Shown: positions 2,975-16,870 of the stretch, piece by piece | Layout of the letters: each line of letters opens with the position of its first letter | Numbering within the stretch: position 1 is the first letter of the stretch | Source: a virus | Taxonomy: Duplodnaviria > Caudoviricetes | Virus record (IMG/VR): IMGVR_UViG_3300040811_001959 | Strand: one strand, 5' to 3' | Length of the DNA stretch: 64,000 bases | The notes under the pieces: generated by a model | What the model was told of the DNA's origin: nothing | What the model saw: the letters and a program-made list of their open reading frames with translations, nothing else | Database searches by the model: none | Made by a program: the position numbers and the translations under genes

Positions 2975-3466
2975 TTATTTTTTAAGATATTCAAGCACTG
3001 CTTCTGGAGTAGACTCAGTGTAGGGATCGCTGTCAAGTCCGAGATTGTTCAAACCTTCCTCGACAAACATCTTTTCTACTTTCTTGTTGTTTACAACCAT
3101 AGCATATCGCCAGCTTCGCAAACCAAAGCCTTGTGCAGGTTTATCTACCAGCATGTTCATACCACGTGTAAATACTCCATCTCCGTCTGGTACCATTTCT
3201 ACTTTTTCAACGCCTAGATCTTTCGCCCATGCATTCATTACAAAAGCATCATTCACCGATACACAATATACAGCATCAATTCCTGCTGCTTGAAATTGAT
3301 CATACATTTCTTCGTACTTAGGCAGTTGTTTGCTACTGCAGGTTGGTGTAAAAGCACCTGGCAATGATACAACTACTACCCGCTTACCTTTAAAAAGATC
3401 ATCAGTAGATTTATCATCCCAATCGGGTCCAACACGGAATTTAAAAGTTTTGTTAGGTACAATCAT
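2975..3466 (-). CDS. Peroxiredoxin (Prx5/type II)
   Basis: SLPGAFTPTCS active site, VNDAFVMNAW, GLRSWRYAMVV. Confidence 0.92.
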   Translation of the reverse strand: MIVPNKTFKFRVGPDWDDKSTDDLFKGKRVVVVSLPGAFTPTCSSKQLPKYEEMYDQFQAAGIDAVYCVSVNDAFVMNAWAKDLGVEKVEMVPDGDGVFTRGMNMLVDKPAQGFGLRSWRYAMVVNNKKVEKMFVEEGLNNLGLDSDPYTESTPEAVLEYLKK

Positions 3467-3781: not shown

Positions 3782-5449
3782 TCAAGCGTTTAAAGGTTCT
3801 TGTGCAGGTTTTTGCATGTTTGGCGCTTGCTGTTGCTGTACTTGTTTTTGCTGTCTCTGTGCCTCAGCAGCGTCTAGTTTTTCAATATCAGCAAGATTTT
3901 TAAGCAGATCACCCATTTCTACTAAATTCCGTACATTTCCGCCCATCATTCTTGTAGTAAAGGTTATTAATCTAGCTTTGCTATCTAAATCATCTACATT
4001 TGATCCAAGTTTTTTTGCCGCCCTATCTTTTAAAAGGACTCCATAAATTTCAATGGACATTGTTCCTTTTGTGTATTTCATTTGTAAATCATACAATGTT
4101 AAGGCTTCGTATAATCTTGTGTCAAAAGCTAATTCCTTGTAAGGAGTAGATTTATTTAAACCAAGGATTACCATAGTTACACCTTGTTCTAGTCGTGTCG
4201 CATGAAGTACAATGTTATTATAGATTTTTTCTACAAGTTGAAATTCTTTCTTTGTATCGTCGTTTGTTAAGACATTATTTTTTAATTCTTGTGCAACAAA
4301 GTCATATAATTTATTAAATGGTCCTTCGCTAAAATTATATTGAGCTGCAGTTTTATCTCTCTCACCTACAGGAGTTCTAAACTGGAATTCTTGTTTAAGA
4401 TGCTCACTCACTTGAATTCCTACAGTTTCATAAAAGAATTGGCAAAGGTTTTCAAAAACTCCTCCGCTTACTTGACCAAATTGTTTAACACCACCTGCTT
4501 TTAAACTCAATAATCTTGTTATGGTTCCGTCATATAAGATTTTTAAATCAACTTTAGTTGTTGTTTGATTTTCTGGGTTAGCGCCATCTGATACAACTTC
4601 TACTAAATTCTGTTTTGGATCTAACATTGCTTTATCAACAGCTACCTGCGCCCGACGACTGGTATTTGCATATTTTACTGCATTAGCAACATGCTCTTGC
4701 ATACCTTTTACTGTTTTCACTGGACAGTCAAACTCTTTTACAAGCAAGAAATCAGCAGGATTAGCCAATGGATCTTTTTCTCTCATCCAGACTTTTAAGC
4801 CTTTAGTGCTGGTTGCATTTAATGTAAGATAAAATGTTACATCGTCGTTTGCAACAGCTTTATCACCATAATTTGCAATCCTTCTTGCTTTTTTATCTTT
4901 GGCCTTACAAACTTCTTTTAGTATGTCGACAACCATAGCAGCATCAATATTCGCACCGCCCTGCTCAAATTTTGCTGTAATAGCTGCACCTAAAACAGCC
5001 TCTGCAATATCGCCTAAATTTGGAGTGAGAGACCCTGTTGCTGCATCTGTTTTGTACATTTGAGATGGAGCCATTTCTTCTCCGTCAACCCAAAAAAATG
5101 TTGAATTTTCTATGTCTTGTGCGCTTACGTTAACAGTATCCGAAGCCCACTTTGCCCATTCTTCTGCAGATAATTCTCCTCCGTCTCCCCAATTTGTAGT
5201 AATCTTATCAACTTTGCCTGCTATTACTGTAGCATTTTTTCCTGATCCTGTTTTCCATAAAAAGGTTTTTTCTTTTGCAATACCATCGGCAACTTTATAT
5301 ACATATTTCCTAGGATCTGGAGTTGTTTTAGAGATTTTTTTATCCCATTCTTTCGGAGCCATTCTGGTCGATGGTAATGTATGCACCTCGCCATCAATTT
5401 CAACTTCTTCTGCTTCAACTAACTCAACTTTAAATTCTCTAAATCGCAT
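3782..5449 (-). CDS. Large phage protein with MRFREF leader and PD-(D/E)XK-like nuclease motif
   Basis: GDIAEAVL...KVDLKILYDG...LLSLKAG pattern; TAAATA late box upstream. Confidence 0.45.
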   Translation of the reverse strand: MRFREFKVELVEAEEVEIDGEVHTLPSTRMAPKEWDKKISKTTPDPRKYVYKVADGIAKEKTFLWKTGSGKNATVIAGKVDKITTNWGDGGELSAEEWAKWASDTVNVSAQDIENSTFFWVDGEEMAPSQMYKTDAATGSLTPNLGDIAEAVLGAAITAKFEQGGANIDAAMVVDILKEVCKAKDKKARRIANYGDKAVANDDVTFYLTLNATSTKGLKVWMREKDPLANPADFLLVKEFDCPVKTVKGMQEHVANAVKYANTSRRAQVAVDKAMLDPKQNLVEVVSDGANPENQTTTKVDLKILYDGTITRLLSLKAGGVKQFGQVSGGVFENLCQFFYETVGIQVSEHLKQEFQFRTPVGERDKTAAQYNFSEGPFNKLYDFVAQELKNNVLTNDDTKKEFQLVEKIYNNIVLHATRLEQGVTMVILGLNKSTPYKELAFDTRLYEALTLYDLQMKYTKGTMSIEIYGVLLKDRAAKKLGSNVDDLDSKARLITFTTRMMGGNVRNLVEMGDLLKNLADIEKLDAAEAQRQQKQVQQQQAPNMQKPAQEPLNA

Positions 5450-5469: not shown

Positions 5470-6162
5470 TTATTCTATATTAGGGAATAACATATCCTTA
5501 CAGAATGTATCAACCATTGCTTCGTCTAATCCTAAACTCTTCATTACTTTAGGTGTGTGTGGATTTTGTTTTTGATGATTACAATAGTGATTTTGTGCAA
5601 CTTTAACACCGTCACCGTCTAAGTAATCGTCGTATTTTCCTACTTCTTCCATATACATGCGGAGGTTAACAACTGCAATGTCAATAATCTGTTGCGCTTC
5701 TTCATCTGTGTTGACATTGCCTGCTGCTAGCATCTTGTCAGTAAAAATACGTTTAGCCCAATCTGGCAACTCTCTCTGCTTGTTAGGTACAAAATCTCTT
5801 ACACTGTCAAAATATAAATTCAGCATAGGATGTATGCGATAAGCACTTGGAGAAAAATCGTGGAATGCACCAGTCATTTTGTTCTTTCCTGCGATAACAT
5901 CAAACCCGTAAATAGGACTGGGATTTGTAAGGATAGGAAATACACAAACATGCATCATCCATAACCCACGTGTATCACGTGCATCAACTACATCAATATG
6001 TGCTCTACGTACAGATTTATTAGCAAAAACACGATTAACCCAACCACTATCAGGCTGATTAAAAGCATCAAGTCCGGGTTCTTCATATTCACTGCAGGTG
6101 TCTTCAAAAATCTTTATAATGTCATTCTGACATGTTATCAGTTTGTTCCAGATAATGCTCAC
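5470..6162 (-). CDS. pcyX: Ferredoxin-dependent bilin reductase, PcyX-like
   Basis: AHIDVV (Asp at the PcyA Glu76-equivalent position), MMHVCVFP His, YGFDVI Asp, GAFHDFSP; overlaps the heme oxygenase gene. Confidence 0.82.
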   Translation of the reverse strand: MSIIWNKLITCQNDIIKIFEDTCSEYEEPGLDAFNQPDSGWVNRVFANKSVRRAHIDVVDARDTRGLWMMHVCVFPILTNPSPIYGFDVIAGKNKMTGAFHDFSPSAYRIHPMLNLYFDSVRDFVPNKQRELPDWAKRIFTDKMLAAGNVNTDEEAQQIIDIAVVNLRMYMEEVGKYDDYLDGDGVKVAQNHYCNHQKQNPHTPKVMKSLGLDEAMVDTFCKDMLFPNIE

Positions 6163-6697
6163 AGTCTAGTTCCATCATTTCTTTAAAAAGTTGGGTTGCA
6201 GAATCAAATGCGTAGCGTGCCTCTTCTGCCATATCGTCATTTAGTTTTTCTCTAATTTTATTTTTTATTGCATCTATATCACCTTTGAAATCAAACATTG
6301 ATTTTAAACCAGGAACTTTCCGTGCAATCATTTGTCCGCCGCTTAAATCCCCCATATGGAAAGTGTAAATATGTGCCATTATCTTGTCAGGGTCGTTCAT
6401 GCAAGTCTTCATATGCTCTATGTAAGCGGTAGTGCTAGGCAACGTTGGCGGAGGAGAAGATTCTTTCCAGAGATAATTAAAATCGTTTAGGATGAGCTTA
6501 TGACGTTGAACATCCGGTATGTCGTTAAACAATGAATGAACCCTGCCCATTGCTTCTAGAAGATCGTATCTTGGATGTAAATTGTAGAGGAATGTTGCAT
6601 AAAATTTAGGATGTATATTACCACTCATCATAATTTTGACAAATTCTTGTCGTTCTGCATTTTTATGATGTTCCCAGGTAAGATCTTTTAAGCTCAT
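6122..6697 (-). CDS. hemO: Heme oxygenase
   Basis: LKDLTWEHHKNAE proximal His helix, AHIYTFHMGDLSGGQMI distal helix. Confidence 0.92.
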   Translation of the reverse strand: MSLKDLTWEHHKNAERQEFVKIMMSGNIHPKFYATFLYNLHPRYDLLEAMGRVHSLFNDIPDVQRHKLILNDFNYLWKESSPPPTLPSTTAYIEHMKTCMNDPDKIMAHIYTFHMGDLSGGQMIARKVPGLKSMFDFKGDIDAIKNKIREKLNDDMAEEARYAFDSATQLFKEMMELDCEHYLEQTDNMSE

Positions 6698-6698
6698 G

Positions 6699-7010
6699 TC
6701 AAGCCCTTTCCATTTGTATTCCTAGTGGAAATCCTTGTTGACGGGCACAAAGGGTCGCTTCTGTAGTTTTTTGTTCTGCAATTTCAAATGTATAGGTACC
6801 AACAACTGCACTGCCTTTTTCATGAACAGTTAACATAATTTGTTCGGCAGTTTCTTTTGAATGTTTAAAAATAATTATCAACAGTTCTGTTACAAAATCC
6901 ATTGGGGTTTGATCGTCATTTAAAAAAATTACACTCCACTTACCAGGTTCTTCGATGCTATGTTTGATTTTTTCGTCAATTATGATTTCTTCAATTGTTT
7001 CTGTAGTCAT
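6699..7010 (-). CDS. clpS: ClpS N-degron adaptor
   Basis: VIFLNDDQTPMDFV...MLTVHEKGSAVVG...AEQK. Confidence 0.92.
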   Translation of the reverse strand: MTTETIEEIIIDEKIKHSIEEPGKWSVIFLNDDQTPMDFVTELLIIIFKHSKETAEQIMLTVHEKGSAVVGTYTFEIAEQKTTEATLCARQQGFPLGIQMERA

Positions 7011-7026
7011 TGTGTTTCCTTGTTGA

Positions 7027-7044
7027 AGGGAGGTCGCCCTCCCT
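7027..7044 (-). terminator. GC-rich hairpin after hsp20 (terminator or processing site)
   Basis: AGGGAGG-GCGA-CCTCCCT, GNRA tetraloop, no clear U-tract. Confidence 0.45.
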
Positions 7045-7055
7045 ATAGTATTTAA

Positions 7056-7517
7056 TTACTCTTCGTTATATTTGATAGTGAAATCTTCTCCTGCAGTAAT
7101 TGCAATCTTTTTAGGCTGCAATGCTTCGGGAATTTCTCTGCGTAAACGAATGTTTAGCATACCTACAGAAAGTCTAGCTTCTATAACTTCAACATAATCT
7201 GCAAGAGCAAATTCTCTCCTAAAGTTCCTAGAGCCAATACCTTTATGGATGTAATTCACTTTGTCTTCGCTTTTAGGCGATGATCCCTCAATACGGAGCA
7301 CATTAGATTCTTTAGTGATTTCTAGATCATCCATAGTAAACCCTGCTACTGCTAAACTGATAACAAATTCATTATCGTCTAGTTTTGCGATATTGTATGG
7401 AGGATAGGAATTACTTTGACTATTAGCAAAAGTTCTTTCTAATTCGTCAAATATTTTATCAAATCCAATTGTAGCTTTGTAATATGAAGGTAAGTCGAGA
7501 GTAGTTAGTCTTGTCAT
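7056..7517 (-). CDS. Small heat shock protein Hsp20 (IbpA-like)
   Basis: YPPYNIAK...ISLAVAGF...YIHKGIGSRNFRREF alpha-crystallin domain. Confidence 0.93.
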   Translation of the reverse strand: MTRLTTLDLPSYYKATIGFDKIFDELERTFANSQSNSYPPYNIAKLDDNEFVISLAVAGFTMDDLEITKESNVLRIEGSSPKSEDKVNYIHKGIGSRNFRREFALADYVEVIEARLSVGMLNIRLRREIPEALQPKKIAITAGEDFTIKYNEE

Positions 7518-7580
7518 TTTTTTCTCCTTTAATAAGCAAGATTAGTAGTGGACCCGACCATCGGCATCCACTGTTATTTA
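7518..7580 (-). promoter_or_regulatory. TAAATA late box plus ROSE-like RNA thermometer leader of hsp20
   Basis: UCUUGCUU-AUUA-AAGGAGA hairpin sequesters the SD with a bulged G; preceded by hairpin AGUGGAUGCC...GGGUCCACU. Confidence 0.7.
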
Positions 7581-7592
7581 CCAAAAACTCAA

Positions 7593-9473
7593 TTAAGCAG
7601 CTTCAGTAACTTCTCCTTCAACAACATTGTCATCATTTGTTTCTGTTGTTGCTTCTGTCTTTTTCTGCTTTGCAGCAAATACTGGAGCAACTGCTTCATG
7701 TAATGCAGTTACTTTTGCAGTCATATCTTCTTTGTCTTCACCTTTAATAGACTCTTGTAGCTCTGTTACAGCAGTTTCAAACTTTGTACGTTCGTCTTCA
7801 GTAAGATCGTCTTTAACTTCGTCAAAGTCTTTCTGATATGTATGGACAGCAGCTTCTGCAGAATTACGTGTATCTACTAGCTCTCTCTGTGCCTTATCCT
7901 TTTCTGCGTTCTCTTCTGCATCCTTAATCATTTTTTCTACTTCTTCGTCGCTCAGACCACTTGAATCCTTAATTGTAATAGCTTGTTCTTTGCCAGTTGC
8001 CTTATCTGTAGCACTTACACTTAGGATACCATTTGCATCAATATCAAATGTTACTTCAATCTGTGGCAATCCTCTCGGTGCAGGTGTAATGCCATCTAAA
8101 TTAAATGTGCCAAGCATCTTATTATCACGTACAAATTCACGTTCTCCTTGTGCTACAACAATAGTTACAGCAGGTTGATTATCTTCTGCTGTTGAAAAAA
8201 TCTGCGACTTTTTACTTGGAATAGTAGTATTCTTTTCAATCAGCTTTGTCATTACTCCACCCATTGTTTCAATACCTAAGCTAAGTGGTGTTACATCTAA
8301 AAGTAGTACATCTGTTGTATCACCTGCAAGCACACTACCTTGGATAGCGGCACCTGCTGCTACAGCTTCGTCTGGGTTGACATCTTTACGTGGAGCTTTT
8401 CCAAAGAATTTTTCTACTGCTGCTTGTACCGCTGGCATACGTGTTTGTCCACCTACAAGGATGATTTCATCAATATCTCCTGCTTGTAGTTTAGCATCTT
8501 TTAGAGCGATTTTGCAAGGGTTAATTGACCTTGTAATCAACTTTTCTACCATTGCTTCGTAATTTGCTCGTGTAAGTTTTACAATGAGGTGCTTAGGACC
8601 GTCAGTTGTTGCAGTAATAAATGGCAAATTAACTTCTGTTTGTGTATTAGTTGAAAGTTCAATCTTTGCTTTCTCTGCAGATTCTTTCAATCTCTGTAGT
8701 GCCATTTTATCTGTGCTGAGATCTACACCATCTGATTTTTTAAATTCTGCAACTAGATAATCTAGGATAGCTTGGTCAAAATCTTCACCGCCTAAAAATG
8801 TATCACCATTTGTGCTAAGTACTTCAAATTGCTTTTCGCCGTCTACATCTGCAATCTCAATAATTGAAATATCAAATGTACCACCACCTAGATCATATAC
8901 AGCAATCTTCATATCTTTCTTGCTGTCTTTATCTACACCATATGCAAGTGCAGCAGCAGTAGGCTCGTTAATAATGCGTAATACTTCTAGTCCGGCGATC
9001 TTACCAGCATCTTTAGTAGCCTGTCGTTGACTGTCGTTAAAGTATGCAGGCACTGTAATTACAGCTTGTGTAACAGTTTCGCCTAAATAGCTTTCGGCAT
9101 ATTCTTTAATTTTTCTAAGAATTTCTGCCGATACCTGCTGTGGAGCAAGGTCTTTTCCATTGGCACGTACCCATGCATCTCCATTTGCAGATGCAACAAC
9201 TTCGTAAGGTAATTTTTTAATGTCTTTTTGTATTTCTTTGTCACTGTGTTTCCTACCTATCAATCTTTTAACAGCAAATAGGGTGTTTTTTGGATTAGTG
9301 ACTGCCTGTCGTTTTGCACTTGTTCCGACTAGGATTTCATCGTCCTTGTATGCCACAATGCTCGGGGTTGTTCTTCCACCGTCTGCGTTTTCGATGATTT
9401 TTTGTTGTTTGTTCTCTAATACGGCAATACAACTATTAGTGGTACCGAGATCAATGCCGATTACTTTTGCCAT
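7593..9473 (-). CDS. dnaK: Chaperone DnaK (Hsp70)
   Basis: [35 protein letters not shown]; full length 626 aa. Confidence 0.99.
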
Positions 9474-9542
9474 TTTTTTCTCCTTAATTAAGCAAGATCT
9501 ATAGCAGACCCACCATTGGCATCTGCTATAAAACTATTTATA
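9474..9542 (-). promoter_or_regulatory. TATAAATA late promoter plus ROSE-like RNA thermometer leader of dnaK
   Basis: UCUUGCUU-AAUU-AAGGAGA SD hairpin with bulged G; preceded by hairpin UAUAGCAGAUGCC...GGGUCUGCUAUA. Confidence 0.7.
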
Positions 9543-9550
9543 AAAAATTT

Positions 9551-10123
9551 TTAAATACCATAATTAAATGATAAACTAATCCTATCCTGATTTGTTTTGT
9601 TACCCTCTACACAATGTTTTAACCACCCTGGAAAAATATATAGGGCATTAGTTTTGGCGGCATACATTGTTTTACTACAATTATAGTAAGTTAACTGTTG
9701 TTGGTTGTCTGGTAAAAAATATTCTGCTCCGTCACCTCTTTCAAATAATAAATTTCCCATGTCAGGAGTGGCATCTACAAAATAGACACCACTAAATAAC
9801 GCTCCAGCATGATTATGCAGGGTATTATATGCACCAGGAGGATTTATATTTAACCATATATTATAAATTTTACATTGTGGTAAACCCACTTGCTCACAAC
9901 AATTATACACTTCCTTGTTGACATAGTCAATCAAAGTATCTATTTCTGTATTTTCTTTTTGCTTGATATCAGTAGATTGGTAGCCAATATAATTACTTAC
10001 TCGTCTGCCAGGATCATTTCTTTTTTTCTCATATGCCCATTTTTTAATTGCAGTATTATCAACCGCATGAACTATTGCAGACCAGATTACATTAGGAAAC
10101 CAAAGCTCCGAATGCATTGCCAT
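9551..10123 (-). CDS. 2OG-Fe(II) oxygenase superfamily protein
   Basis: YNTLHNHAGALFSGVYF...IFPGWLKHCVE...DRISLSFN. Confidence 0.8.
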   Translation of the reverse strand: MAMHSELWFPNVIWSAIVHAVDNTAIKKWAYEKKRNDPGRRVSNYIGYQSTDIKQKENTEIDTLIDYVNKEVYNCCEQVGLPQCKIYNIWLNINPPGAYNTLHNHAGALFSGVYFVDATPDMGNLLFERGDGAEYFLPDNQQQLTYYNCSKTMYAAKTNALYIFPGWLKHCVEGNKTNQDRISLSFNYGI

Positions 10124-10787: not shown

Positions 10788-12116
10788 TTAGATAGTATTC
10801 TTGTTCACCCATTCTTCGTTACTTTTCTTTTCTTCAACTATTTTATCTATTTTTGTGTTAATTTCTTCGTTATTGGCAACTATAATTTTTTCATTTAGTT
10901 CTTGAATAACTTCAGTATTAACTATTTGTTCTTCAAGTACTGTACTTTTATTTGAAGTCTTAGTTTTAATAAATTCTAAAGTATATTGGCTAGCAATTAA
11001 TAATAAAACTGCTAAAGGATCAAAAACAAAAATTATAGTAATTATTACCCACCTTACTGCTTTTTCTAAAATATCTTTGTCAGCTGATTCGCCATAGACC
11101 ATTTCTGCAATATACTTAATTGGTCCTACTTCTGCTTCAAGTTTCCTTACATCTGCTTGCAATGCAAATTTTTCCTGTAATAATTTATCTAATTCTGCAT
11201 TATTGTTTTTTATTTTATTTTGCTCTTCTTCTAATAAACTAGAAACATCTTTTGCTTCTGTGCTTTGTAGTTGTGATCTATACGATGTGATTAATTGATT
11301 AGATTCCGCAATTTGTTTTTCTGCTTGTGCTCGTAACCTTGCAATTTCTTCTTTAGCTTGTTTTACTGTATCAGTATCAGAAGCATTTTGTATTTTATCT
11401 AGCCATTCTTGCCTTTCTGCAGACTTTTGCTCTTGATAGGCTGTAAATGCACTGGCTGTATTAGGTCCGTACTTTCCGTCAGCTTTTGTACCAACCATGC
11501 CTTGCGCTTTAGCAATTTCTCCATTATTAATAAAAGATTGTAATAGAGCTAAATTTTTATCAATCTTTGCTAATTCAGTTTGGTAAAGTTGGGTAGCAGA
11601 TGCAATGATGCGATTTTGTTCATCTATCAAAGGCTGGATGCGAGCATATGCAGCATCTATACGTTCTTGTTCTTTATCTATTTGCGTTTGTATTACAGCT
11701 TGTCCGCCAGTACCTTTTTCCTCTAACTTCGCAATTGATGCTTCAGACTTAGTAATAGCATCTTCGTAACGCAATATTTCTCGTGTTATACGTTCTTCTT
11801 GTGCTACACTCTCTTCACTTGCACTAGTTTGTTCTATATGGGCTTTTGATAGAAAGCCAAATATTCCCATTGATGTAATAAACATCAATACAATGACTGC
11901 CGCAGCGAGATATGTCCTAAGCCACCATTTAGCTTTAAACCAGAATTTGTGTAACCATACTGCAGTTACAAGTTTGCTAATTTCTAGTGTGCCTCCCATT
12001 ATTATAATAGGGATTGCTGCAGCAGAGAAAATAGCAACTAAACCTGCTACACTGTAATAAATTGCAATTGCACTAATAGAAAGTGCTGTGATAAGGGTGA
12101 GGTAAAAATATATCAT
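10788..12116 (-). CDS. Membrane-anchored coiled-coil protein with peptidoglycan-binding-like motif
   Basis: Three N-terminal TM segments, long coiled coil, ADGKYGPNT motif, C-terminal TM IIFVFDPLAVLLLIA. Confidence 0.6.
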   Translation of the reverse strand: MIYFYLTLITALSISAIAIYYSVAGLVAIFSAAAIPIIIMGGTLEISKLVTAVWLHKFWFKAKWWLRTYLAAAVIVLMFITSMGIFGFLSKAHIEQTSASEESVAQEERITREILRYEDAITKSEASIAKLEEKGTGGQAVIQTQIDKEQERIDAAYARIQPLIDEQNRIIASATQLYQTELAKIDKNLALLQSFINNGEIAKAQGMVGTKADGKYGPNTASAFTAYQEQKSAERQEWLDKIQNASDTDTVKQAKEEIARLRAQAEKQIAESNQLITSYRSQLQSTEAKDVSSLLEEEQNKIKNNNAELDKLLQEKFALQADVRKLEAEVGPIKYIAEMVYGESADKDILEKAVRWVIITIIFVFDPLAVLLLIASQYTLEFIKTKTSNKSTVLEEQIVNTEVIQELNEKIIVANNEEINTKIDKIVEEKKSNEEWVNKNTI

Positions 12117-16454: not shown

Positions 16455-16762
16455 AAAAAAGCAGGAGGGATAGTCCGTTCTGTTGCCCGGTGGACTATGC
16501 CGCGGAGTTCACAACGTATTAGGCTGCGAGTAATTCACCTTCACTAGCCATTGACATGTCTAATGAAGTAAATGCTCCAGGTACAAAATTTTCGTTTGCA
16601 CTTATAAAAGTTTCTTGCATTAACCGAGCTTGCTCCGGATAACTCAGCATCCCTACTTACTGCTTGTCGAATACCTGAACACCCCCGTATGTTGAAAAAT
16701 GTGTGGTGGAGGTGGCCGGAATCGAACCGGCGTCCAAGTTCAGCTTTTGTTCAGCGTCATCG
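16455..16762 (-). ncRNA. ssrA: tmRNA, circularly permuted two-piece form
   Basis: Acceptor piece ends GGTTCGATTCCGGCCACCTCCACCA (CCA end at 16704). After 17 nt the coding piece starts GGGGGTG (16686), giving a 7-bp acceptor stem with G3-U70. Tag frame 16599-16519 reads ANENFVPGAFTSLDMSMASEGELLAA-stop. Confidence 0.93.
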
Positions 16763-16765
16763 TTA

Positions 16766-16870
16766 TTAGTTTAGATCAGGTACGTGTAAAGCAATTTCTG
16801 CTGACCAAATTAATATGTATATAATAAACATGCACAATAACCAAATAGCCAAGTTTTTACCGTCACGCAT
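16766..16870 (-). CDS. 34-aa single-TM peptide (not in ORF track)
   Basis: MRDGKNLAIWLLCMFIIYILIWSAEIALHVPDLN; fills the gap between the mini-ORF and tmRNA. Confidence 0.5.
   Translation of the reverse strand: MRDGKNLAIWLLCMFIIYILIWSAEIALHVPDLN

Follow-up and report, generated by a model that had tools for sequence, protein, structure and literature searches.

Candidate ROSE_3-type RNA thermometers in the leaders of phage hsp20 and dnaK genes

Introduction

ROSE thermometers have been described on small heat-shock genes of alpha- and gammaproteobacteria, and the hosts of cyanophages and pelagiphages are, to our knowledge, not known to use them. Among phages, lambda cIII is an RNA thermometer that works through alternative conformers. 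Here, two putative thermometers of the ROSE type were analyzed in a 64,000-nt stretch of DNA (hereafter the window, to whose first letter all positions refer) from IMG/VR virus record IMGVR_UViG_3300040811_001959 (Duplodnaviria; Caudoviricetes), an uncultured aquatic phage. On the minus strand of the window, the chaperone genes hsp20 and dnaK are each preceded by a ~60-nt leader with two predicted hairpins.

The closest described elements are the short ROSE-like thermometers of Pseudomonas ibpA, which likewise consist of two hairpins (Krajewski et al., 2013; PMC3669281). In these, hairpin II alone melts with temperature and is sufficient for regulation, while hairpin I stays closed; disruption of hairpin I de-represses expression, and its function is not understood (PMC3669281). 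Classical ROSE1 and ROSE_2 elements are longer and have three or four hairpins (PMC3669281). A fourU element has been reported on blyA of the SP-beta prophage (PMC10586365), as have hsp17-type thermometers of cyanobacteria, Synechocystis hsp17 and Avashort among them (PMC4152365).

Results

Architecture of the two leaders and similarity to ROSE_3

The two leaders were found to share one layout, namely TAAATA, hairpin I with the core GAUGCC..GGGUC, UCUUGCUU, a 4-nt loop, AAGGAGA, seven A residues and the AUG. An initial annotation of the window, made from its letters, had described this architecture, and every element of it was located on the minus strand of both leaders. RNAfold predicted exactly two hairpins per leader (z = -2.4 and -3.4 against shuffles) and returned, for hairpin II of both, the proposed base-pairing with the Shine-Dalgarno element (SD) across a 4-nt loop, with seven base pairs around one bulged G. 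The outer stems of hairpin I had been described as different yet complementary, and comparison of the two copies bears this out, with two compensatory pair swaps (U-A to C-G and G-C to A-U). Hairpin I of the hsp20 leader is not followed by a U-tract and is therefore not an intrinsic terminator. The pattern TCTTGCTT-N3-6-AGGAG occurs twice in the 64 kb against 0.01 occurrences expected, once in front of hsp20 and once in front of dnaK, and the 117.6-kb virus record that contains the window holds no further occurrence.

The region 7000-9700 was scanned permissively with Rfam models. ROSE_3 (RF02523; gathering threshold 43 bits) was aligned over model positions 1-69 to the dnaK leader with 32.2 bits (E = 4e-4) and to the hsp20 leader with 28.8 bits (E = 3e-3), and both alignments take in the GAUGCC..GGGUC core as well as the U(U/C)GCU/SD helix. 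By the Rfam threshold the leaders are not formal members of ROSE_3; judged on architecture and sequence, both are placed with the short ROSE-like elements. An hsp20 leader of another phage (L125) scored 46.1 bits, above the cut-off. The models ROSE (RF00435) and ROSE_2 (RF01832) gave no match at E <= 10 in the same region. When the virus record itself was searched with the ROSE_3 model, the hsp20 copy only was regained, and control genomes gave nothing above the cut-off. Two further matches, one of freshwater-2 to the dnaK leader (E = 4.7) and one of Avashort inside dnaK (E = 1.5; the sole Avashort match in the region), were rejected as chance.

It had been suggested that the GAUGCC/GGGUC hairpin might be a separate conserved motif. 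This suggestion was dropped, since the ROSE_3 consensus has GAUGCCGAAgUCGGGUC in its own hairpin I; the core lies within that consensus and is therefore hairpin I of the family. The ROSE-type identity of the leaders, in turn, is borne out by their architecture and by similarity to ROSE_3 over its full length (below threshold), and covariation among relatives supports the fold. Set against the general definition of ROSE elements, both leaders carry the anti-SD UCUUGCUU facing AAGGAGA, with a bulged G predicted opposite the SD (7537 and 9493); the pattern CU(U/C)GCUU was counted in 71 of 78 phage hsp20 leaders. The hsp20 copy lies in the 5' untranslated region (UTR) of a small heat-shock gene, this UTR being deduced from a promoter-like motif only. 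The dnaK copy departs from the definition, as its gene encodes Hsp70.

Distribution and covariation on phage hsp20 genes

The hairpins were misaligned by MAFFT, and a covariance model was therefore started from two near-identical sequences and then iterated. Two sequences, the hsp20 leader and its 95%-identical relative, went into model R1, and 19 matches into the rebuilt model R2. With either model the 117.6-kb record yielded exactly two copies, which are also the only ones in the window. In loci gathered by an alignment-based scan for viral Hsp20, the R2 match ended at the hsp20 ATG in 78 of 80; one of the two loci without a leader, L084, has no upstream DNA. A covariance-model search of phage sequences, which the initial annotation had proposed, thus placed the leader on nearly all viral hsp20 genes examined, with a model seeded by the hsp20 leader and its relative. 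Cultured phages with the same hsp20 leader include cyanophages Syn33, MED4-213 and S-RSM4, phage C48C1, and Pelagibacter phage HTVC103P.

Within the alignment of these 78 leaders, 92.7% of cells pair (74.1% in shuffles), 14 of 18 pairs vary on both sides, and the covariation score is 0.478 compared with 0.155 for shuffled alignments and <=0.074 for slid partners. Because the alignment had been fitted to the model, these figures are biased towards structure; even so, the slid controls are clear, and so is the free variation seen in the outer stem. Strong covariation was located in hairpin I. In hairpin II the anti-SD reads CUUGCUU or CUCGCUU in 69 of the 78 leaders, the SD is AAGGAG or UAGGAG in 72, and the bulged nucleotide is G in 76 and A in two.

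The apex of hairpin I (U-G pair, bulged G, CC/GG) might be the binding site of a host or phage protein or RNA that controls chaperone mRNAs, a proposal that we hold to be very improbable. The apex is conserved while the outer stem varies freely, with C-G pairs kept in 75/78 and 67/78 leaders and the bulge G in 74/78, and it is common to the Pseudomonas ROSE_3 consensus, where its function is not understood (PMC3669281). On the other hand, no partner is known, hairpin II alone still thermoregulates in Pseudomonas (PMC3669281), and the element spans cyanobacterial, SAR11 and Pseudomonas hosts, which speaks against a host-specific factor.

A natural variant at a residue regarded as critical in ROSE elements was observed in contigs G002 and G003, whose dnaK and hsp20 leaders all carry CUUACUU, so that the bulged nucleotide is A, not G, in all four (Table 1).

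Five whole gammaproteobacterial genomes and 151 genomes of that class were searched with R2; one weak match was obtained, inside a coding region, and as few candidates were scored per genome, this result does not bear on the distribution of the element in bacteria. The best NCBIfam models for the window Hsp20 are IbpA and IbpB, both below cut-off, which fits an origin from an ibpA-type gene; the phage hsp20 and its leader were most likely derived together from such a proteobacterial gene. One locus was dropped as phage evidence, namely L049 ('Campylobacter phage A11a', MG065691.1, 73494-75104), the record of which is marked unverified. Its hsp20 has a 100-bit ROSE_2 leader of the enterobacterial ibpA type, the only ROSE_2 match, in G+C-rich DNA, and this part of the record is probably bacterial.

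The leader on dnaK

Among phage relatives of the window dnaK, the leader was found in front of the gene in a near relative (L039) and in the L040, L030, L032 and L033 groups, and was absent from that position in the L020-L029, L031, L036 and L037 groups. Several viral hsp20 loci directly follow a DnaK-like C-terminus. Five such contigs were searched whole, and each gave exactly two R2 matches ~1.96 kb apart, which end at the start codons of dnaK and hsp20, respectively; a second copy on the adjacent hsp20 was thus present in these five contigs, as it was in L033 and L040. At least eight further groups of phage contigs contain the module [leader]-dnaK-[leader]-hsp20. In the ten dnaK leaders, 157/163 cells pair, and each position of the outer stem shows three to five kinds of pair. 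Changes in L039, which is 98% identical, only produce G-U pairs or fall in the linker, and two substitutions in hairpin I keep the pairing as G-U.

The initial annotation had called a ROSE element on dnaK atypical, and this assessment holds. No R2 match at E <= 1 was found within 1.5 kb of the 80 nearest bacterial dnaK loci, whose DnaK proteins are 63-69% identical and nearly all from Gammaproteobacteria, and this negative carries some weight because R2 detects the genuine enterobacterial ROSE_2 element in L049. A literature search returned no paper that describes a ROSE element on dnaK or in any phage; its coverage was incomplete, so this is no proof. The leader was probably not imported with dnaK but added in phages. 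On the sequences compared, its placement on dnaK seems to have arisen in phages, where it was most likely recruited from the hsp20 leader. The two leaders of the window are 80% identical to each other, compared with 49-60% for within-phage pairs elsewhere, which points to a fairly recent copying or conversion of the leader in this lineage. Concerted evolution of paired leaders as a general rule was considered and rejected, as mean identity was 0.56 within a phage and 0.52-0.53 between phages, and the window pair (0.80) alone stands out.

Predicted stability of hairpin II and competing folds

At 5, 15 and 37°C, the predicted stability of hairpin II is about -6.3, -4.8 and -1.6 kcal/mol, respectively, compared with -13.7, -11.8 and -7.8 kcal/mol for hairpin II of the ROSE_3 consensus. 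By these predictions the phage helix at 5°C has roughly the stability that the Pseudomonas consensus reaches at 42°C. When the leader was folded alone, the SD was predicted to be 95% paired at 15°C, and for the dnaK leader the SD-unpaired probability rose from 0.04 (15°C) to 0.20 (37°C). Ranked by SD occlusion, the two chaperone genes come second and third among the 19 SD-bearing genes of the window. The low stability could suit a thermometer set for cold to temperate water, and it could equally reflect weak, nearly constitutive damping of translation.

Several results weigh against temperature gating of the two genes by hairpin II. Both leaders score under the ROSE_3 gathering threshold, and the gating itself is argued by analogy with described thermometers. 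Modelled hairpin II is very weak and may be only mildly repressive at habitat temperatures, and the predicted SD-unpaired probability rises only from 0.04-0.05 at 15°C to ~0.2 at 37°C. Hairpin II is almost invariant, so that there is little covariation for its pairing, which rests on conservation instead. When 18-21 nt of coding sequence were added to the hsp20 leader, the predicted fold preferred a helix in which the SD is open and the AUG paired, and among 93 leaders at 15°C the median SD-unpaired probability went from 0.16 to 0.40 once 21 nt of coding sequence were included.

An unlikely account of the same leaders is a constitutive 5' UTR module, in which hairpin I would block 5'-end-dependent decay and the SD helix would damp translation to a fixed level, chaperone output then being independent of temperature within the natural range of the phage. 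It would accommodate a hairpin II that falls far short of the ROSE_3 consensus in strength at all temperatures, a predicted SD opening that barely changes between 5 and 30°C, and a hairpin I that begins 2-8 nt past a promoter-like -10 element of any promoter type; an mRNA-stabilising hairpin I has likewise been proposed by the authors of the Pseudomonas study (PMC3669281). It does not account for an anti-SD, bulged G and SD that are kept near letter-for-letter in 78 phage leaders, which would be needless for a mere stabiliser, or for the confinement of the element to heat-shock genes, with exactly two matches per contig, always on dnaK and hsp20; the same design is, moreover, a proven thermometer in Pseudomonas (PMC3669281).

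The extended folds bear on another account, to which we give about half the credence of the constitutive module: a two-state switch in which CUUGCUU pairs either with the SD or with the start-codon region, the AUG being the main occluded site at least for hsp20. At 37°C the AUG-pairing helix is favoured by 2.4 kcal/mol for the hsp20 leader with its coding sequence, it is likewise predicted for the nearest relatives of this hsp20 (L050, L051, L054, L056, L059 and L088), and in the 93 leaders at 15°C the median AUG-unpaired probability went from 0.97 to 0.29 with 21 nt of coding sequence. Both strands of the helix are conserved, being constrained one as the anti-SD and the other by Met-Thr-Arg codons, and the helix is hence without covariation. 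The extended folds were, in addition, compared without a shuffled-extension control, the dnaK leader retains its SD helix when extended, and nearest-neighbour energies handle a helix with a bulged G poorly.

In a clade of hsp20 leaders (L060-L063), GUCAU was observed just 5' of the anti-SD. It is complementary to the start-codon sequence AUGAC and would extend hairpin II over the AUG, a feature that favours the two-state switch; start-codon occlusion may thus belong to the way the leader is built, which is also the case for longer ROSE elements.

With these points weighed, the best explanation is that the two leaders are related cis-acting copies of a ROSE_3-type thermometer gating the translation of Hsp20 and DnaK, to which a probability of roughly 0.65 is assigned.

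Promoter-like motifs and transcription

Late promoters had been proposed upstream of both leaders. The dnaK leader is preceded by an exact copy of the T4-type late-promoter-like element TATAAATA; at hsp20 the candidate motif GGTAAATA, situated 11 nt past the dnaK stop codon, agrees with it in 6/8 bases only. TATAAATA is not enriched in the window (7 found, 12.6 expected; several copies lie inside open reading frames (ORFs)), and the late-promoter reading therefore rests on its position relative to the leader. In T4 the late motif spans -13 to -6; if that spacing applies, the dnaK mRNA would start at ~9529. TAAATA ends 0-6 nt ahead of the model start in 55 of 97 phage leaders, and most of the others either lie immediately behind dnaK or are preceded, at an equal spacing, by a promoter of the TATAAT-like or full sigma-70-like kind. 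Hairpin I would therefore stand at the predicted 5' end whichever promoter is used. No terminator was found between dnaK and hsp20; read-through is therefore possible, and the dnaK promoter may also serve hsp20.

In metatranscriptome contigs, from which starts, strand and level cannot be read, hsp20 is covered at 7065-7310 (identical) and dnaK as far as 9501, 9506 and 9513; one contig of a relative spans the end of dnaK, the hsp20 leader and the start of hsp20 (7343-7949). DNA is possibly present in metatranscriptome libraries, and cover that ends before ~9531 is not evidence for a start site. Summed depth over 7464-7557 (the start of hsp20 and its leader) was above that of neighbouring bins in four metatranscriptome contig sets, most strongly in X19 and X20 (up to 279 compared with ~2-6; contig depth is not quantitative). 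The probable source of this excess is a large number of related phages with the conserved leader in common.

Genomic setting

The virus record (117.6 kb, ~53% complete) encodes tail-fibre, virion and ribonucleotide reductase genes, and matching DNA occurs in estuary, seawater and freshwater metagenomes. The order of genes on the minus strand is 2-oxoglutarate (2OG)-Fe(II) oxygenase, dnaK, hsp20, clpS, heme oxygenase and bilin reductase. Genes for DnaJ, GrpE and GroES were looked for across the record and none was found. The three genes directly 3' of hsp20, together with a redoxin and a second 2OG-Fe(II) oxygenase further downstream, make up an island of genes for proteostasis and pigments. 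A G+C-rich 7-bp hairpin lies between the stop codon of hsp20 and the start of clpS; it is not followed by a U-tract on the gene strand and may be a 3' stabiliser or processing site. Two ORFs near the chaperone genes matched no Pfam family, and the longer one had a PHROG of unknown function as its sole match. The window also contains a permuted (two-piece) transfer-messenger RNA (tmRNA) gene; two-piece tmRNAs have been reported in Melnitz-like phages and pelagimyophages (PMC9004378).

Table 1. Positions of the leaders, their parts, the chaperone genes and other features (window numbering, except where a locus handle is given).
Feature	Position	Strand	Details
T4-type late-promoter-like -10 element upstream of dnaK leader	9542-9535	-	TATAAATA; exact match
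dnaK leader, hairpin I	9532-9498	-	covarying outer stem, U-G pair, bulged G 9520, CCA/UGG inner stem; fold and ROSE_3 alignment
dnaK leader, hairpin II	9497-9479	-	UCUUGCUU with AAGGAGA, loop AAUU, SD 9480-9485, bulged G 9493; predicted fold
dnaK AUG	9473-9471	-	start codon
Partial late-promoter-like motif upstream of hsp20 leader	7582-7575	-	GGTAAATA; 6/8 bases of TATAAATA
hsp20 leader, TAAATA	7580-7575	-	context GGTAAATA
hsp20 leader, hairpin I	7572-7547	-	AGUGGAU/GUCCACU outer pairs, bulged G 7565, inner CCGA/UCGG, core GAUGCCGAUGGUCGGGUC; fold and ROSE_3 alignment
hsp20 leader, hairpin II	7541-7523	-	UCUUGCUU with AAGGAGA, loop AUUA, SD 7524-7529, bulged G 7537; predicted fold
Competing hsp20 helix	7509-7541	-	UCUUG.CUUAU with AAUGACAAGA; AUG paired, SD in loop; predicted
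hsp20 AUG	7517-7515	-	start codon
2OG-Fe(II) oxygenase	9551-10123	-	gene preceding dnaK
dnaK (Hsp70)	7593-9473	-	626 aa; Pfam HSP70 862 bits; NCBIfam DnaK equivalog 980 bits, above cut-off
hsp20 (IbpA-like small heat-shock protein)	7056-7517	-	153 aa; Pfam HSP20
Hairpin between hsp20 and clpS	7027-7044		G+C-rich, 7 bp
clpS	6699-7010	-	
Heme oxygenase	6122-6697	-	
Bilin reductase	5470-6162	-	PcyA-type, ferredoxin-dependent
ORF	3782-5449	-	555 aa
Redoxin	2975-3466		
ORF	10788-12116	-	442 aa
tmRNA, permuted	16469-16848	-	Rfam tmRNA_permuted 88.4 bits, alpha_tmRNA 52.2 bits
GUCAU leaders	L060:322-385, L061:318-385, L062:320-385, L063:337-403		hsp20 leaders
CUUACUU leaders	L214:1501-1550 (-), L218:1501-1556 (-), L213:1501-1556, L219:1501-1562		bulged A

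Discussion

A ROSE design stands on nearly every viral hsp20 examined, including those of cultured cyanophages and a pelagiphage, and a recurrent phage module puts it on dnaK too. The element is real, widespread and apparently undescribed, and its function as a thermometer is a prediction. Under the thermometer reading, each leader would act in cis on its own mRNA. Hairpin I would form a stable stem-loop at, or a few nucleotides from, the predicted 5' end of the transcript, with the probable role of stabilising the transcript and shielding hairpin II as it folds. At low temperature the weak CUUGCUU/AAGGAG helix around the bulged G would hide the ribosome-binding site, and warming would melt it and let the 30S subunit bind, whereby the output of phage Hsp20 and DnaK would be set post-transcriptionally and without the host heat-shock sigma factor. 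Where transcription starts, what hairpin I does and how the leaders respond to temperature are inferred; the sequence, the predicted fold, the ROSE_3 similarity, the covariation and the distribution were observed or computed.

A broader proposal, offered tentatively and with somewhat less than even confidence, is that the ROSE leader is a portable phage chaperone cassette, captured with an ibpA-type hsp20, copied onto dnaK, and lowered in stability to gate at cold-temperate aquatic temperatures. Were this so, a phage could match its supply of Hsp70 and small heat-shock protein to temperature or proteotoxic load without depending on host sigma-32 or on the class of promoter in use, be it late or sigma-70-like. 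If the leaders are functional thermometers, very abundant aquatic viruses would tune chaperone synthesis post-transcriptionally, possibly to water temperature, which would bear on the temperature dependence of infection outcome. The phage leaders would also make up a series of naturally occurring ROSE hairpins of very low stability, which would help in understanding and designing thermometers for low temperatures.

The phage leaders are most like ROSE_3 of Pseudomonas ibpA, with which they share a length of ~60 nt, two hairpins, a stable hairpin I with a bulged G and GAUGCC..GGGUC, U(U/C)GCU pairing to the SD around a bulged G, an AUG predicted to be free and, for the hsp20 copy, a position in front of an IbpA-like small heat-shock gene. 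They differ from it in being phage-borne, in their sub-threshold score and in the second copy on dnaK; their hairpin II is AU-rich, without flanking G-C clamps and ~6-7 kcal/mol weaker, and the T4-late-type motif TATAAATA presumably replaces a sigma-32 promoter. ROSE1 (Bradyrhizobium hspA) and ROSE_2 (E. coli and Salmonella ibpA) have the U(U/C)GCU anti-SD, the bulged G in the 3'-proximal hairpin and the link to small heat-shock genes in common with the phage leaders, which are shorter, have two hairpins and gave no match to the covariance models of those families.

As in lambda cIII and SP-beta blyA, a ribosome-binding site on a phage mRNA is predicted to lie under temperature-sensitive RNA structure, but cIII and blyA control lysis or lysogeny genes, have no ROSE motif and belong to unrelated structural classes. 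Synechocystis hsp17 and Avashort resemble the phage leaders as short 5' UTR hairpins over the SD of small heat-shock genes, and they do so in hosts of many of the carrier phages; they are nevertheless of a different sequence class, the phage element being of the proteobacterial ROSE type and not of the type of the host.

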